Source: a bacterium (GTDB taxonomy: Bacteria; Patescibacteriota; Minisyncoccia; UBA6257; GWB1-50-10). Taken from it: DNA of 44,388 bases. The stretch lies in the NCBI GenBank assembly GCA_021801565.1, contig JAJYXV010000005.1:1-44388 (forward strand), in the 5' to 3' direction. Positions 3,584-44,388 of the stretch are shown here, piece after piece (positions within the stretch are counted from its first letter, which is position 1; each line of letters opens with the position of its first letter). A model generated the notes under the pieces. That model did not search any database and was not told the DNA's origin. It was given only the letters and a program-made list of their open reading frames with translations. A program made the position numbers and the translations under genes.

Positions 3584-3605
3584 ATTTTTCTTTATTTCTC
3601 TCTCT

Positions 3606-3631
3606 GGGTACTATGACGCGTCCTAGTACCC
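3606..3631. repeat. CTATGACGCGTCATAG-family palindrome, copy 1 (one mismatch)
   Basis: GGGTACTATGACGCGTCCTAGTACCC. Confidence 0.85.
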
Positions 3632-13838: not shown

Positions 13839-15728
13839 TTATTCTTCATCTTCTTCGGTGCCTTTTGATTTATACCAAAGATATAACGCATAGAGAATAA
13901 GAAAGAAAATAAAGATAACAAAAAATGTAATTCCGTTTGTTCCTTCACCAAGAGAAAGAATACTCGCAAGCAATTTCAATTGTGGAGATCCATTATCGAG
14001 AGTTGAAAATCCAAGCACACTTGGAATTTGCGCACCAGCAAGTTTGTTATAATTTTCTGCATCAAGCACATATGCATTTTCTCCGAATGAGATTGCTCCC
14101 GCTCCAGGCTTTTTTGCAACGAATCGGAATACTCCAAACACCTTTTTTTCAGTGAACCCTTCCGGATATCCAGCGGTTTTGACAATAATCCCCTTATCCA
14201 CATCATGGATATCATACTCAGGACGAATCACTGGAACCCAGTTGTCCCAATAGGTCACCGATTTGAATTCCAAAAGATCTTTTGGATATTGCAATTTCAC
14301 CTGTGCGGTATATGTCTTTTCATTTGTTCCTGGTTCGACAGTCACTATTGCATAAAATTCTTGCCCCTCTACCACAGTAAGTCTTGTCGGAGCAAAAGAA
14401 ATAATCGTTCCTGATTGTGTCTTATAATTTTTATCCACTTTCATTTCCGTCCAATCTCTCATAAGTTCATACACATCGCGGTTATCCACTTCTCCATCTT
14501 TATTAAGATCGGCAAGATTATTTTTTCGTGAGACACCCCAATTTACCATAAGCGTATTAAAATCGAGTGTTCGGGCGCCTAATACCTCGCCACGAGGCGG
14601 CTGTGGAACCGGAATTGGAGTAGGAATCGGTGTTGGTGTGGGAATAGGAGTGGGGGTCGGAATTGGAGATGGTTCATTCCCATATTGAATATCATCAAAA
14701 ACGATTATACTTTCCTCATTATTTGAATTCCTATATTTTACATATACCGTCTTCTTCCCATACCCTTCCGAAAGAATCCAAGATTTTTTATCTGTATATG
14801 CCTCCCATGATGCATCAGAAACATCTGCCTTATTTGAAATCTTCATCTGTGAAGCACTCACCGCTGTAAGTGTGAGATTCACATCACGCGTATCAGTTCT
14901 CTCTGCATCATTATTTATAATTATTTTATAACCCGCTACCGGAAGAATAGGGCCCCCTCCGGATCCACCCCCGCCACCGCCTCCACCGCCACCCCCTCCA
15001 GAATTTGTGGTTGCGGAAGTAGTTACAAACGGAGATCCTGAACCACACAAATTAAAAATTTTGATTGCAAAATAATATTTTGTGTTTGTTTCTAATCCGT
15101 TCACTGTCATTGTTTGTGTCTGTCCTGAAAATGGATGAGGGGTTCCTGTATATTGTGTAGAAATATAAAATGTTCCCTCGGTTATTTGATTTTTTGAATA
15201 ACGAAGATCAAATTCAGAAAGATCTGATTGTGTTTGTGTCTGCCAAGAAAGTGTAATAACACTTGCAGAATTTGGTGTCCCAGAAAAGTTCATTACGGAA
15301 AACGGGCTCGGACATCCTTGTCCACCCCCTCCACCACCTCCAGGAGAAACAGTAATAAATGCGATGCCAGAAAATTCACCCATAATATTGTAGAGTTTTA
15401 ATCCAAAATAGTATGTGGTGTTTGCATTCAGTCCATTCACAGTCATTGTCTGTGTTTGTCCTGAAAATGGATGAGGAGTTCCTGTATATTGCGTCGCTAT
15501 AGAAAAATTTCCATCGTTCAATGGACTTGTTGAATAACGCAATTCAAATTCAGATAAATCACTTTCTGCTGGGGTTTTCCATGAGAGAGATGCTGATGTT
15601 CCTGATATGCTACCGGTAAAGTTTGATACAGACGAAGGAACCGCGGCATACGTAAACGGCACCGAAACTACCGAAATCACGATAATTGAGATAACGGTAA
15701 AAATTGTATAAAGATGATTATTTTTCAT
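13839..15728 (-). CDS. Secreted, C-terminally membrane-anchored protein: two FN3 domains, dockerin-like motif, cohesin-like domain
   Basis: Signal peptide; duplicated FN3 module; poly-G and PT linkers; ADLNKDGEVDNRDV EF-hand loop; cohesin-like beta domain; C-terminal TM. Confidence 0.8.
   Translation of the reverse strand: MKNNHLYTIFTVISIIVISVVSVPFTYAAVPSSVSNFTGSISGTSASLSWKTPAESDLSEFELRYSTSPLNDGNFSIATQYTGTPHPFSGQTQTMTVNGLNANTTYYFGLKLYNIMGEFSGIAFITVSPGGGGGGGQGCPSPFSVMNFSGTPNSASVITLSWQTQTQSDLSEFDLRYSKNQITEGTFYISTQYTGTPHPFSGQTQTMTVNGLETNTKYYFAIKIFNLCGSGSPFVTTSATTNSGGGGGGGGGGGGSGGGPILPVAGYKIIINNDAERTDTRDVNLTLTAVSASQMKISNKADVSDASWEAYTDKKSWILSEGYGKKTVYVKYRNSNNEESIIVFDDIQYGNEPSPIPTPTPIPTPTPIPTPIPVPQPPRGEVLGARTLDFNTLMVNWGVSRKNNLADLNKDGEVDNRDVYELMRDWTEMKVDKNYKTQSGTIISFAPTRLTVVEGQEFYAIVTVEPGTNEKTYTAQVKLQYPKDLLEFKSVTYWDNWVPVIRPEYDIHDVDKGIIVKTAGYPEGFTEKKVFGVFRFVAKKPGAGAISFGENAYVLDAENYNKLAGAQIPSVLGFSTLDNGSPQLKLLASILSLGEGTNGITFFVIFIFFLILYALYLWYKSKGTEEDEE
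15097..15491 (-). repeat. Internal module duplication (15097-15155 vs 15433-15491)
   Basis: Near-identical 59-bp segments 336 bp apart, both encoding QYTGTPHPFSGQTQTMTVNG. Confidence 0.85.
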
Positions 15729-17842: not shown

Positions 17843-17921
17843 GCCTCTCCCTTCTTACAACCCCATCTTTTCACATATATTCCTGTCTATACTCTTTTCT
17901 TATATTGAAAATATAATACAC

Positions 17922-17945
17922 GCCACTATGACGCGTCATAGTGGC
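17922..17945. repeat. CTATGACGCGTCATAG-family palindrome, copy 2
   Basis: Perfect 24-bp GCCACTATGACGCGTCATAGTGGC, 1 bp after the stop of the TrpR-like gene. Confidence 0.9.
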
Positions 17946-18381: not shown

Positions 18382-18409
18382 GCTCTATTTATACATCCTA
18401 CCATATATT

Positions 18410-18447
18410 CACACAGGGTACTATGACGCGTCATAGTACCCTGTGTG
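18410..18447. repeat. CTATGACGCGTCATAG-family palindrome, copy 3
   Basis: Perfect 38-bp CACACAGGGTACTATGACGCGTCATAGTACCCTGTGTG between the uvrB stop and the TrpR-like start. Confidence 0.92.
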
Positions 18448-33697: not shown

Positions 33698-34969
33698 TTA
33701 CAATATTCCTTCATATTCTCTTACGGTAAGCTGCGATTCAATCTGCTTCATTACTTCGAGAGCCACAGATACCACGATAAGCAAGCTAGTTCCCCCAAGC
33801 GAAAACGCCTTAATTCCCGTTGCTATCTGAGTCAGATTTGGAAGTATCGCAATAATGCCGAGGAATAGTGCACCAAACAACGTTGTACGATGGACGATTT
33901 TCCCGATCATAAGTGATGTCGCTTGGCCTGGACGAATACCGGGAATAAAACCTCCGCTTCGCTGTAGATTTTTTGATATTTCTTCTGGATCAAATGTGAT
34001 AGCGGTGTAAAAATAAGTGAAAAGTACCACGAGCACAAAATAGAGAGCGCTATAAAGAAAAATATTATTAAAGAATGAAGAAACAAACTGATTTACCGTG
34101 AGCGACCACTCCTTTGAAATAATCGATATCGCTTGCGCAAAAAATTGCGGGAATAAAAGAAGTGAGATTGCAAAAATAATCGGAATCACTCCCGCTTGAT
34201 TCACTTTGAGTGGAAGATACGTTGAGGCTCCTCCATACATTTTATTTCCCCGCACCTGCTTTGCATACGAAACAGGTACCTTTCGTTCCCCCTCGCTAAT
34301 ATATACCACTCCTGCAATGACAATAATAGCCAACACAATGAAAGTAATATATGTGGGGATCATTTCCGGAGAAAAATTTAAAAGACTCTGTCCGATTTTC
34401 TGTGGAAGTGAACTTACGATACCAGCAAAAATAATGAGTGAAACGCCATTTCCGATTTTATACTCAGAGATAAGCTCTCCAATCCACATAAGAAGTAAAC
34501 TCCCCGCGGTAATAACAATTACATTAATAAGCAACTGATTAAGAGGGAGGGGAGGAACTACCCCACGCGAGGTGAGAAGATTAATAAATCCATATGCCTG
34601 CATCATTGCAAGAGGCACAGTAAGATATCTTGAAATTCGATTAAATTTTGCTCTTCCTTCGGCGCCTTCCTCGTAATATGCCTTTTTTAAATTTGGGAAA
34701 ATGATAGTAAGCAACTGCATAATAATCGTTGCGGTGATATATGGACCGACACCAAGCATTACAACAGAAAGATTACTAAGCCCACCACCGGAAAATAAAT
34801 CAAGAAAACCTAAAAGTTGATTTGAGTTAAAAAAATCATGGAGACGCCCCGAATCTACCCCAGGAACGGGAATCGCTGCAAGCAACCGAAATACAAGGAG
34901 GAGAAACAGTACTATAAGTACTTTCTTCCTCAAATCGGGGATCTTAAAAACTTGGAGAAATTTATTCAT
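33698..34969 (-). CDS. secY: Preprotein translocase subunit SecY
   Basis: LGVGPYITATII, GNGVSLIIFAG, IPGIRPG and GGTSLLIVV motifs; start MNKF at 34969. Confidence 0.98.
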   Translation of the reverse strand: MNKFLQVFKIPDLRKKVLIVLFLLLVFRLLAAIPVPGVDSGRLHDFFNSNQLLGFLDLFSGGGLSNLSVVMLGVGPYITATIIMQLLTIIFPNLKKAYYEEGAEGRAKFNRISRYLTVPLAMMQAYGFINLLTSRGVVPPLPLNQLLINVIVITAGSLLLMWIGELISEYKIGNGVSLIIFAGIVSSLPQKIGQSLLNFSPEMIPTYITFIVLAIIVIAGVVYISEGERKVPVSYAKQVRGNKMYGGASTYLPLKVNQAGVIPIIFAISLLLFPQFFAQAISIISKEWSLTVNQFVSSFFNNIFLYSALYFVLVVLFTYFYTAITFDPEEISKNLQRSGGFIPGIRPGQATSLMIGKIVHRTTLFGALFLGIIAILPNLTQIATGIKAFSLGGTSLLIVVSVALEVMKQIESQLTVREYEGIL

Positions 34970-35130
34970 TCCGTTCATGACAGGAAACGTAAACATTTCC
35001 GCCTGCCTGCGCAGGCAGGTACGTCTTTTTTACATTTATCGCGCCTTTCTCTATTGTTTTAAATATGTACATGTTTTTAAATATAATTTTAATCACTTTC
35101 CCCTAAAAGACCAGTAATAGCGGGATTTAT
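34965..35130. mobile_element. Start-codon-embedded TIR element at secY (degenerate), including flanking repeats
   Basis: Plus strand TTCAT-TCCGTTCATGAC...TAATAGCGGGA-TTTAT; contains a ~54-bp cassette shared with the rplB copy. Confidence 0.7.
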
Positions 35131-41458: not shown

Positions 41459-42283
41459 CTATTTCCTTCGCTTCATAATAAGCTTATTCGACCACTTTTT
41501 TCTATTACGCGTTTTTCTTCCTCCTGTGATTTTTCCCCATTTCGTTTTTGGTCTACGAGTACCGCGTTGAGTTCTTCCCTCTCCACCTCCATACGGATGA
41601 TCGCGTGGATTCATAACGGATCCGCGAACTGTAGGACGCACTCCAAGAGCTCGAGAACGGCCAGCCTTCCCGATATTTACAAGATTATGTTCAATATTTG
41701 AAACTTGACCAATTGATGCAAAACATTCTGATAACACTTTCCGTACTTCGCCAGATGATAATTTTAAATGAGTGTACCCCGCTTCGTGCGCAAGTACCTG
41801 CACCGACACACCGGCTGAGCGTGCCATTTGCCCCCCTTTCCCTGGAGTAAGTTCAATATTATGGATAAATGTTCCCACTGGGATTCTTTTTAATTGCGTC
41901 CTGTTCCCTGGTTCAAACGGTGCTTCATTTGAAGTGCTGACAGTTGCCCCTACTTTTAATCCATTTGCAGCAAGTATATATCTTCTCTCTCCATCCTTAT
42001 ATGTTATCAACGCAATAAATGCGGTACGATATGGATCATATTCAATTGTCTCAACAACTCCTGGAACCCCGATTTTATTCTGTTTGAAATCAACATTCCG
42101 GTACACAATTTTATTCCCCCCACCTTGATGGCGGGTGGTTATCCGTCCCTGATTATTTCTTCCCGAGTTTTGTTTTAACTTTTGAGTAAGCTGCTTTAAC
42201 GGTTTTTTCCGAGTAATATTGGCGCGATAATCAACTGACGTATAGTGTCTGCGTGATGCTGTTGTTGGTTTATATTGTTTCAT
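41459..42283 (-). CDS. rplB: 50S ribosomal protein uL2
   Basis: GRNNQGRIT, YDPYR and MNPRDHPYGGGEG motifs. Confidence 0.98.
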   Translation of the reverse strand: MKQYKPTTASRRHYTSVDYRANITRKKPLKQLTQKLKQNSGRNNQGRITTRHQGGGNKIVYRNVDFKQNKIGVPGVVETIEYDPYRTAFIALITYKDGERRYILAANGLKVGATVSTSNEAPFEPGNRTQLKRIPVGTFIHNIELTPGKGGQMARSAGVSVQVLAHEAGYTHLKLSSGEVRKVLSECFASIGQVSNIEHNLVNIGKAGRSRALGVRPTVRGSVMNPRDHPYGGGEGRTQRGTRRPKTKWGKITGGRKTRNRKKWSNKLIMKRRK

Positions 42284-42439
42284 CCCGTTAATAATAGGAA
42301 ACGTTTACGTTTCCGCCTGCCTGCGCAGGCAGGTACGTTTTTTTACATGAATTTCGTCCTTTTTTTGTCTGTGTATAAAACATAATTTTATTTTCTTGTT
42401 TCTTTAATAATGATAAAAACTATTATGAACGGGATTCAT
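42279..42439. mobile_element. Start-codon-embedded TIR element at rplB, including flanking repeats
   Basis: 15-bp IR with one mismatch: ATCCCGTTAATAATA (42282-42296) / TATTATGAACGGGAT (42421-42435); TTCAT on both flanks. Confidence 0.88.
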
Positions 42440-42442
42440 ACA

Positions 42443-42784
42443 CTAAATAATTTCTATCTTTTGTCCTTTTTTAATTTTCACCACAGCTTTTTTTGTACCT
42501 TGTCGCCGTTGTGTTGAATATCGAAATCTCTTTATTTTTCCCTTTATATTCGTCATCGTCATTGAAACAACATTCACTCCGTATCTTTTTTCAATTTCTT
42601 CTTTCACCATTTTCTTATTTGCATGAGGATACACCAAAAACGTATAGCGGTCTTCACCATAAAGACGTTGTGCTTTTTCACTCACCCAGGGTCTTTTGAT
42701 GATACTTCGAATCACCATCGCAGAAGTTCCTGCTATTTCTTTTTTCTCTCCTTTTTCTTTTGTTTTATTTTTTACAGGACTCAT
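42443..42784 (-). CDS. rplW: 50S ribosomal protein uL23
   Basis: RPWVSEKA, YTFLV..ANK and KKAVV motifs. Confidence 0.95.
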   Translation of the reverse strand: MSPVKNKTKEKGEKKEIAGTSAMVIRSIIKRPWVSEKAQRLYGEDRYTFLVYPHANKKMVKEEIEKRYGVNVVSMTMTNIKGKIKRFRYSTQRRQGTKKAVVKIKKGQKIEII

Positions 42785-42790
42785 ATTATG

Positions 42791-43417
42791 TTATTCTTCC
42801 GATTTTTTAACATGCAACACCGCATCTTTTTCAATAAAAATAAATTTATGCGCTACACATTCGTATGCGTTTAGCGACGATACAGAAATAACCAATACAC
42901 CGGGAATATTCCGTGCTCCCAAAAACGCATTCTTTTTTTCTTTCGCTACTACCACAAGAGCACTTGCCTGTTTTTTGAAAAAATATTTCAAAAACGCGGC
43001 ATACTCTTTTGTCTTTGCGCTTCCAAAATCAAAATTGTCTACTACAATCAATTGTTTATCTGTAAATTTTTTGGAAAGCGTCGAAAAAAGTGCCGCTTGT
43101 CTCATTTTTTTATTTGTTTTCTTTGAAAAATCACGATCATTTCGTGGTCCATGAGTGATACCTCCTCCTGACCAAATTGGAGAACGAGTTGAACCGTGTC
43201 GAGCCCGCCCCGTATGTTTTTGACGCCACGGTTTTTTTCCTCCACCGGCAACTTCTCCTCTCGTTTTTGTGTGTGCAATCGTATTTCTTTTGTTTGCAAG
43301 ATGCGCGGTTACTATTTGATGCACCAATTCAGGATTCCATTTCACCGAAAAAACCCCTGCCGGTAATGCAAGTGTTCCTACTTTTTTATTCTCTTTATTA
43401 ACAACGTCAATATTCAT
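42791..43417 (-). CDS. rplD: 50S ribosomal protein uL4 (in-frame upstream ATG at 43576 adds 53 element-derived codons)
   Basis: TKTRGEVAGGGKKPWRQKHTGRARHG; homology begins at MNIDVV. Confidence 0.96.
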   Translation of the reverse strand: MNIDVVNKENKKVGTLALPAGVFSVKWNPELVHQIVTAHLANKRNTIAHTKTRGEVAGGGKKPWRQKHTGRARHGSTRSPIWSGGGITHGPRNDRDFSKKTNKKMRQAALFSTLSKKFTDKQLIVVDNFDFGSAKTKEYAAFLKYFFKKQASALVVVAKEKKNAFLGARNIPGVLVISVSSLNAYECVAHKFIFIEKDAVLHVKKSEE

Positions 43418-43576
43418 TCCGTTTAGAAACTCGCCTGAATGAGAAGATTTATTCTTTCGGGCAGGTAGATCACGATCCGAATTTTTTAATTCGGTAGTGT
43501 GAGTATTTTTTGATTTTTTTTCAACCGTTTGTTTCATATTTGTCTTTTTGTGATCATAATTTCTAACAGAATTCAT
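43413..43576. mobile_element. Start-codon-embedded TIR element at rplD, including flanking repeats
   Basis: ATTCCGTTTAGAAAC (43416-43430) / ATTTCTAACAGAAT (43559-43572); TTCAT on both flanks. Confidence 0.8.
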
Positions 43577-43587
43577 AAATATAAAAA

Positions 43588-44022
43588 TTATTTCTTTATT
43601 ACCTCAACAACTGTTCCGCGCATTCCCGGAACCGCGCCGCGAAGCATGAGAATTCCTTTTTCTAAATCAATGTTTGCCACTAAAAGATTTTTTACATGTG
43701 CACGTTCCATACCCATGTGTCCCGCCATTTTTCTCCCCTTCACGACACGCTGTGGAGCCGTTGGACCCAAAGATCCAGGAGCTCTCATGCGATTTTTTTG
43801 TCCATGTGTTGCTGGACCACCATGAAATCCATGGCGTTTTACCACCCCTTGAAATCCTCTTCCTTTACTGAGTCCACTTACTGAAACTTTTTCTCCCACA
43901 GAAAAACCCTCGAGCGTATCATTTTCGTTCTTTTTCTTCAACTCAAGAACCGTTACGGGAACAACCGAATCACCTTTCCAAAGTTGAGTCATTTTTACCT
44001 TTTTTGCAAAAATTTTCTTCAT
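43588..44022 (-). CDS. rplC: 50S ribosomal protein uL3 (internally shortened, 144 aa)
   Basis: KK.KMTQ, PVTV, SKGRGFQGVVKRHGF and MAGHMG motifs. Confidence 0.95.
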   Translation of the reverse strand: MKKIFAKKVKMTQLWKGDSVVPVTVLELKKKNENDTLEGFSVGEKVSVSGLSKGRGFQGVVKRHGFHGGPATHGQKNRMRAPGSLGPTAPQRVVKGRKMAGHMGMERAHVKNLLVANIDLEKGILMLRGAVPGMRGTVVEVIKK

Positions 44023-44123
44023 CCCTTCACATAATACAAGATTGTATACACACAATCCGTTTCTATCTGGTTAGCATTATAAAATCCTTCACTAAGAGCC
44101 ATTGCCTTACGTGAGGGATTCAT
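44018..44123. mobile_element. Probable start-codon-embedded element at rplC (variant ends)
   Basis: ATCCCTTCAC (44021) / GTGAGGGAT (44119); TTCAT on both flanks; a second internal arm ATCCTTCACTAAG at 44084. Confidence 0.6.
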
Positions 44124-44163
44124 ACTACGCCAAAATATCCTAATATGTTTTCGATAAGAAAAC

Positions 44164-44183
44164 AACAGGGGGAGAGCCCTGTT
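44164..44183 (-). promoter_or_regulatory. Leader hairpin with U-rich tail upstream of rplC
   Basis: Transcript AACAGGG-CUCUCC-CCCUGUU followed by GUUUUCUU. Confidence 0.5.
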
Positions 44184-44214
44184 TTCCTGTTTATAGTAAT
44201 GGCTAACCCATATT

Positions 44215-44243
44215 ATCGTAACCTACCCCGTTATTTTCGTCAA
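44215..44243 (-). promoter_or_regulatory. Putative promoter of the rplC operon
   Basis: TTGACG-N17-TACGAT. Confidence 0.6.
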
Positions 44244-44280
44244 CCGTTTTCCTCTGATTTTATGCTGTTCAGACGAGATA

Positions 44281-44388
44281 TGTTTTCAGGTCAATAGCTT
44301 GTAACCATATTCATATAAAATATCGACAGGGGTCTTCATCATGAGTGCCATGTGTGGTCTCTCATGGTTGTAGTAGCGAAGGAACTTC
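44281..44388 (-). mobile_element. Right end of IS481-family insertion sequence (truncated by window edge)
   Basis: Terminus TGTTTTCAGGTCAATAGCTTGTAACCA matches the IS end at 127; preceded by an integrase-core tail. Confidence 0.8.
44286..44387 (-). CDS. IS481-family transposase, C-terminal fragment (partial)
   Basis: Manual translation KFLRYYNHERPHMALMMKTPVDILYEYGYKLLT*; YN..RPH..L...TP motif. Confidence 0.8.
   Translation of the reverse strand, partial: KFLRYYNHERPHMALMMKTPVDILYEYGYKLLT

Follow-up and report, generated by a model that had tools for sequence, protein, structure and literature searches.

The window analysed here, a stretch of 44,388 nt within the 742-kb genome G000, carries at the start of the ribosomal protein gene rplD a 159-nt segment that represents an old, non-autonomous and by now partly decayed copy of a mobile element, one that targets start codons and forms hairpins. 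The copy is open throughout and in frame with uL4, and the resulting N-terminal tail of mobile-DNA origin is probably translated, as judged from its sequence context.

The open reading frame at 42791..43576 on the minus strand encodes 261 aa beginning MNSVRN, with the conserved uL4 start, MNIDVV, at residue 54 (ATG at 43417). A sequence-only reading of this DNA had claimed that the frame runs without a stop for 159 bp from the ATG at 43576 to that at 43417, and that the upstream ATG lies 11 bp past the rplC stop. The translated ORF bears out the first claim (159 nt, 53 codons, no stops), and the distance from the rplC (uL3) stop codon (TAA, 43588..43590, minus strand) to the ATG is exactly 11 nt. 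The remaining two frames of the same 159 nt contain four and five stops. The full fused frame yields 261 aa from Met1, 248 aa from Met14, or 208 aa from Met54, the last corresponding to the conserved uL4 coding sequence (42791..43417, minus strand, 208 aa plus stop), and the junction peptide from tail to uL4 is SSHSGEFLNGMNIDVVNK. The product matches Ribosomal_L4 (PF00573) over residues 70–257 (210 bits vs. a cut-off of 25.8, 3.1e-62 in Pfam), and the gene lies in the S10 operon with rplC and rplW as neighbours. The 261-aa protein is on record on eight contigs and a 236-aa form from a second species, G001, on three; a search for tailed uL4 in a collection of 5.8 billion proteins returned no variants beyond these two forms. 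The tail is rich in Lys, Asn, Ser, and Thr and is predicted to be disordered, with AlphaFold2 giving a pLDDT of ~30 for residues 1–52 and a confident fold starting at residue 55.

Comparison with the sequences of relatives proves that the rplD segment is an insertion. In G003, L033, and L034, the rplC stop is followed by the same 11-nt spacer (one base off in L033) and then by the uL4 ATG. G002 and L032 are also empty at rplD, the element being absent from this site in five of seven lineages of the genus; three of the empty sites came from a metagenome scan. Since the empty sites of G003, L033, and L034 have the 11-nt spacer, the ATG at 43576 stands in the native rplD initiation context and is the original start of the gene, the ATG at 43417 being the duplicate. 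The earlier view of the segment as mobile DNA is thus upheld by these empty sites together with the repeat copies described below. The empty site of L032 (metagenome contig Ga0265292_1001041) reads ATGAATAATATT, with an extra AAT codon (MNNIDV) that could be the footprint of an imprecise excision or a simple triplet duplication.

Duplication of the target is evident at rplD, rplB, rplX, rplF, and secY, each of which is filled in one genome and empty in another. The duplicated target is ATGAA, ATGAG, or ATGGA, and variation in its left copy is mirrored in the right one (ATGGAT with ATGGAT). A given site can hold one subfamily in one species and another subfamily in the next, which marks such start codons as hot spots. 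In G002 (L023), two identical type-A copies, at rplB and rplX, both have ATGAGT on the left, and the rplB gene itself starts ATGAAA; this identity despite differing right sides suggests that the left “duplication” may be carried along by the element itself and not created anew each time it inserts.

The conserved Met is the first residue of uL4 in 19 relatives belonging to other genera, where it lies a few codons past the rplC stop, and none of these 19 loci holds an extended uL4 gene, the long frame in G012 being a masked stretch. The comparison of uL4 N-termini that had been proposed as a check therefore identifies the tail as an addition, element-free relatives starting at the conserved Met, and is undecisive as to whether the tail is translated. 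The start of uL23 (42784), where MSPVKN resembles MNPVRN, was considered as an older exapted copy and rejected, as a Lys/Glu-rich N-terminal extension occurs family-wide (G014, G016, G024) and is not element-like.

The family to which the rplD copy belongs consists of dispersed, oriented, hairpin-forming repeats whose AACGGG 3′ end abuts the host ATG and whose 5′ side carries ATGAAT, ATGAGT, or ATGGAT, the insertion targets being start codons of the form ATGAA/ATGGA. Copies measure 115–160 nt, with terminal repeats of 12–25 nt that are either type A (CCCGTTAGAAAT, then CGCGATC) or type B (CCCGTT[AC]ATAATAG), and at least 18 of them are present in G000. The 5′ motif occurs four times in the window vs. 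0.16 expected, and four G000 copies lie within the S10-spc operon, at rplD, rplB, rplX, and secY. The 3′ end followed by ATG is found in 36 of the 61 genomes of the taxonomic family, with no occurrence in the reversed control. Terminal repeats, small size, and dispersed copies, the hallmarks of bacterial MITEs, are thus all present, and the empty sites add target duplication. In the literature on MITEs, start codons, and Patescibacteria, we found no published description of a start-codon element family.

The copy at rplX spans 123 nt from ATG to ATG (38555 to 38432) and that at rplB 156 nt (42439 to 42283); as the sequence-only reading had noted, their in-frame products end early, after 10 and 11 codons (MNPVRNRDRM and MNPVHNSFYHY, respectively, each followed by a stop). 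The secY start carries a type-B copy (34967–35127, minus strand) in which the duplicated upstream ATG is now ATA. Loss of the upstream ATG (to ATA, ATT, or AAG) is seen in about half of the G000 copies and may result from selection against an extra start. A full-length type-B copy of 299 nt (C5:35066-35365 in G000) contains an ORF for an 87-aa GIY-YIG nuclease (Pfam, 9.5e-16), which begins inside the copy and closes on an ATGA overlap with the host gene. The closest solved relatives of this nuclease are UPF0213 proteins, and it is the only protein encoded by the full copy, which codes for no known transposase.

The anatomy of the rplD copy can be followed from its upstream end, all features being on the minus strand. 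ATGAAT at 43571..43576, the original start plus one codon as seen in the empty sites of G003, L033, and L034, is the left copy of the target duplication. It is followed by the 5′ terminal inverted repeat (TCTGTTAGAAAT + TATGATCAC, 43550..43570), which is predicted to pair with the 3′ repeat and is degenerate relative to the family consensus (CCCGTTAGAAAT + CGCGATCAC, from an alignment of 13 type-A copies). The internal ATG (Met14, 43537) lies in an A-rich block (43507..43538) of which 31 of 32 nt are identical in the G001 copy. The inner part of the 3′ inverted repeat (TCGGATCGTGATCTA, 43466..43480) reads GGATCG where a frame-0 stop, TGATCG or TAGTCG, is usual. A nested 36-nt secondary hairpin (43430..43465) adds 12 stop-free codons; it is found inside other copies of G001 and G002 and is absent from the G001 rplD copy. 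The outer 3′ inverted repeat (TTTCTAAACGGA, 43418..43429) has one A more than the canonical TTTCTAACGGG, and the right copy of the duplicated target, ATGAAT, then opens the uL4 coding sequence. The copy is thus flanked by ATGAAT on both sides and ends TCTGTT...AAACGGA, degenerate vs. CCCGTT...AACGGG.

The extra A (the 3′ repeat being CTAAACGGAATG vs. the canonical CTAACGGGATG) sets the ATG-to-ATG distance at 159 nt, in frame 0, rather than 158; at 158 nt the upstream ORF (uORF) would close on an ATGA overlap. This extra base and the lost in-frame guard stop together let the rplD uORF run into uL4 instead of closing at the host ATG or 4 nt short of it. This 3′ variant, with a 5-nt spacer, is shared by the secY copy and the C1 copy of G000. 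The inverted repeats at rplD still pair in the predicted fold (−37.6 kcal/mol, z = −3.1), in which the probability of being unpaired is 0.82 for Met14, 0.31 for Met1, and 0.24 for Met54. A search of the gene strand inside the element for a promoter that could yield a message lacking Met1 gave no hits in excess of the shuffled expectation, and Rfam gave no match at E ≤ 1 across positions 42000–44388. At window positions 42330–42350, 35000–35020, and 43430–43465, element copies harbour short, nested, GC-rich palindromes (CCTGCCTGCGCAGGCAGG and a 36-nt relative), which recur across other copies and genomes in the manner of second-order inserts.

We scored 74 copies of the family (17 in G000, 36 in G060, and 21 in G061) for uORFs, defined as ATG-started frames of at least 15 codons that end at a TAA 4 nt before the host ATG or on an ATGA overlap. 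A uORF closing at the host start was present in 63 of the 74 (G000 15/17, G060 33/36, G061 15/21), counts that are not independent, since the G060 and G061 copies are related by descent. The terminating codon is either the TAA of TAACGGGATG, at −4 relative to the host ATG, or the TGA of the overlap. Among the 31 G060 copies in which the ATG is duplicated, the frame opened by the duplicated ATG reaches the TAA at −4 in 21. The interiors of the G060 copies are open in frame 0 in 26 of 36 cases, compared with 6/36 and 3/36 in the alternative frames and a shuffled expectation of 4.8; terminal repeats were excluded from this count because the 5′ repeat contributes TGA and TAG to the two alternative frames. 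Of 46 copies that have a duplicated ATG, 5 have the two ATGs in frame, and each of these reaches a stop early. No fusion starting at the duplicated upstream ATG was found among 41 G060 and G061 copies or among the remaining G000 copies, and in 7 of the 17 G000 copies a frame-0 stop lies exactly eight codons before the ATG. In-frame fusion is a rare failure of the family design, not its habit. In shuffles, a 52-codon frame is open by chance in 1.5–3.4% of cases, which is not negligible at ~10 copies per genome, yet the family-wide open uORF explains the rplD frame better than pure chance, which we therefore rejected.

The 3′ end of the 16S rRNA of the organism (G000 C12, ~217990–218050) reads GGATCAATTAAATT where CCTCC is expected, and so lacks an anti-Shine-Dalgarno sequence; the usual bacterial 3′ end is GGATCACCTCCTT. 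Genes of the operon have AT-rich leaders devoid of Shine-Dalgarno motifs and start 2–14 nt after the preceding stop. Translational coupling is reported to be strongest for NTGA overlaps and very short spacings (PMC12548453). The element, we infer, maintains expression of its host gene by routing ribosomes through the uORF, a hand-over that fits an organism without anti-Shine-Dalgarno in its 16S rRNA.

The element inserts on ATGAA or ATGGA start codons, duplicating the target and leaving a rebuilt ATG at its 3′ end. In intact copies, the native or an internal ATG opens a uORF through the hairpin that closes 4 nt before or on the rebuilt ATG, and we propose that ribosomes are passed to the host gene by unfolding of the hairpin and/or by termination-reinitiation. 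At rplD, ribosomes re-initiating at Met1, 11 nt past the rplC stop, would read straight into uL4, as would those that load at Met14, which is exposed. At least a fraction of the uL4 molecules would then bear a disordered tail of 40–53 residues, and some short uL4 may also arise from Met54. We infer translation of the family uORFs and of the fused frame alike; for the tail it is favoured by the native start context, the apparent dependence of the family on upstream translation, the lack of a Shine-Dalgarno route to Met54, and the open frame in G001.

The best-surviving alternative, which we regard as possible but on balance doubtful, is that the cell makes only short, conventional uL4, the hairpin being cut by RNase III or bypassed, or ribosomes loading directly at 43417, so that the upstream frame is a silent accident. 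A point against the tail is that rplX and rplB, behind uORFs of 10–11 codons, and secY, behind a copy with ATA, must still be expressed; the 3′ end can then support initiation at a rebuilt ATG without read-through, which makes a short uL4 feasible. The conserved-Met starts of all 19 relatives agree with this, and the genome encodes RNase III. Correia transcripts are cut at their inverted repeats (PMC10969869), and by analogy a cut in the repeat stem could remove Met1 from the rplD message. However, of the three AUGs, Met54 is predicted by folding to be the least exposed, no anti-Shine-Dalgarno sequence would guide ribosomes to it, and the native coupled context is still in place at Met1. Moreover, rplX and rplB each have a second uORF (23 and 31 codons, respectively) closing at the TAA at −4, so upstream translation may be required by these genes as well. 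G001, too, has the frame open, although the 5′ repeat is lost there, leaving no stem to be cut.

Translation of the tail, the reading we prefer, also draws on the G001 locus. Its rplD gene holds a decayed copy at the same site, with the 5′ repeat and the first ATG deleted and the 3′ repeat degenerate. The Met14 equivalent is now the first ATG past rplC, 13 nt after the stop, and from it the frame is open for 28 codons into uL4, giving 236 aa. The expectation that the frame would be preserved across strains thus holds in the sole other species with an element at rplD. The 70-nt interior shared by the G000 and G001 copies is 84% identical and has no other match in four genomes of the genus. On this sequence evidence the two copies are likely orthologous; they could also have been inserted independently. 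The ribosomal protein tree, (((G000,(G003 group,L032))81–85,G001)100,G002), places beside G000 a clade (G003, L032–L034) that lacks the element, at a node with 81–85% support, and under this topology a single origin needs one precise loss, unless the weak node is wrong.

Across seven flanking ribosomal protein genes, G000 and G001 are 48% identical at four-fold sites (dS 1.47, dN 0.082). The 23 alignable codons of the tail have a dN of 0.15 and a dS of 0.31, with no replacements in the first ten codons from Met14 and no third-position bias, and a dN/dS of ~0.5 over so few codons gives no clear sign of selection on the tail peptide. The low dS may reflect constraint, at the nucleotide level at least, or copies younger than the species split. 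In the alignment of copies, the conserved interior block coincides with the conserved core of the family itself, and its conservation may serve the element rather than uL4.

A more far-reaching form of the preferred reading, to which we give only tentative credence, is that the element rewrote the initiation of uL4: ribosomes would flow in via Met1 and Met14, selection for uL4 supply, and not for the peptide, would keep the frame open, and two species would carry tailed uL4. If true, the birth of a ribosomal protein extension has been caught in progress. It is unlikely that the tail is both translated and maintained by selection for a function in uL4 or in its expression, whether because entry at Met1 or Met14 demands an open frame or because the tail acts on the ribosome surface. 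Such selection would account for a frame open in two species, an extension whose dN is ~10 times lower than the rate at flanking neutral sites, ten codons from Met14 without an amino-acid change, and a G001 deletion that brought Met14 close to the rplC stop. Against it, five of the seven genus lineages manage without the tail, its dN/dS is not clearly below 1, the conserved block is that of the element core, and the comparison is between two sequences only, whose orthology is likely but unproven. Finally, the in-frame state hinges on one base within an AAA run, but a miscounted A in CTAAACGG is a most improbable explanation given that the identical 261-aa product is found on eight contigs, the same 5-nt-spacer variant recurs at secY and in the C1 copy, the independent genome G001 is also in frame, and a run of three bases is not error-prone.

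The sequence-only reading had likened the segment to the Rickettsia palindromic elements (Ogata et al. 2000), which lie within genes, habitually in frame (PMC10969869). The analogy stands for the outcome, reached here by a different route, in that a hairpin repeat of ~100–150 bp ends up within an essential protein that tolerates the addition, here as a predicted translated tail. It fails for the habit of the family, which, in a different host phylum, occupies start codons with duplication of the ATG and normally lets none of the three frames run past the host start, a uORF ending there in 63/74 copies; among the copies scored for fusion, only the rplD copy is fused from the duplicated start.

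Correia elements (CREE/NEMIS) and co-transcribed MITEs share with this family the terminal repeats, target duplication, many copies close upstream of genes, co-transcription, and a hairpin potentially open to cutting by RNase III (PMC10969869). Correia elements differ in duplicating TA, in having a transposase-type parent, in carrying promoters rather than a coupling uORF, and in the lack of start-codon targeting (PMC10969869). The Ssn NTS/SRM systems (Chenal et al. 2025, PMC11893778), as presented in the accessible part of that paper, similarly have a tiny GIY-YIG gene surrounded by dispersed hairpin repeats; the same part makes no mention of start-codon insertion, ATG duplication, or uORF hand-over. 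The likeness is one of GIY-YIG domain and repeat layout, and the best solved relatives of the nuclease are UPF0213 proteins. Coupled gene pairs (PMC12548453) offer a further parallel, in that the family uORF stops on the host ATG or 4 nt short of it and its translation would melt the stem at the downstream start. Here, however, it is a mobile element that provides the upstream partner, and at rplD the coupling has collapsed into fusion.

The rplD locus presents a dated stepwise series, from the empty site through an intact insertion with a duplicated start to a one-base slip into fusion, with a last step in the second species, where a worn remnant is recognisable just as a tail. The family seems to be harmless because it closes three frames and hands ribosomes on, and the same design can fail into fusion. 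Ribosomal proteins of ultra-small bacteria often carry disordered, lineage-specific tails, and the rplD locus offers an example of how one may originate. Confirmation of the uL4 tail by proteomics would be direct evidence of mobile DNA feeding new sequence into the ribosome.

A second element family, with ends CCCTCACG...GTGAAGGG, is represented on the rplC start (44023–44123, minus strand). From its duplicated ATGAAT at 44123, a uORF of 34 codons runs to a TGA that overlaps with the rplC start codon at 44022 (ATGA), and the site is empty in G003, where the ATG follows directly. The gap between rpsJ and rplC measures 600–900 nt in all four genus genomes (window 44056–44388, L021–L023), which is unusual in an S10 operon, and a terminator-like hairpin lies between the two genes at 44183–44164. 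Elsewhere in the window, a palindromic repeat of the GGGTACTATGACGCGTCATAGTACCC type occurs at three sites (3599–3631, 17918–17942, and 18409–18444), and at 15051–15587 a 201-nt segment is repeated 336 nt apart with 75% identity.
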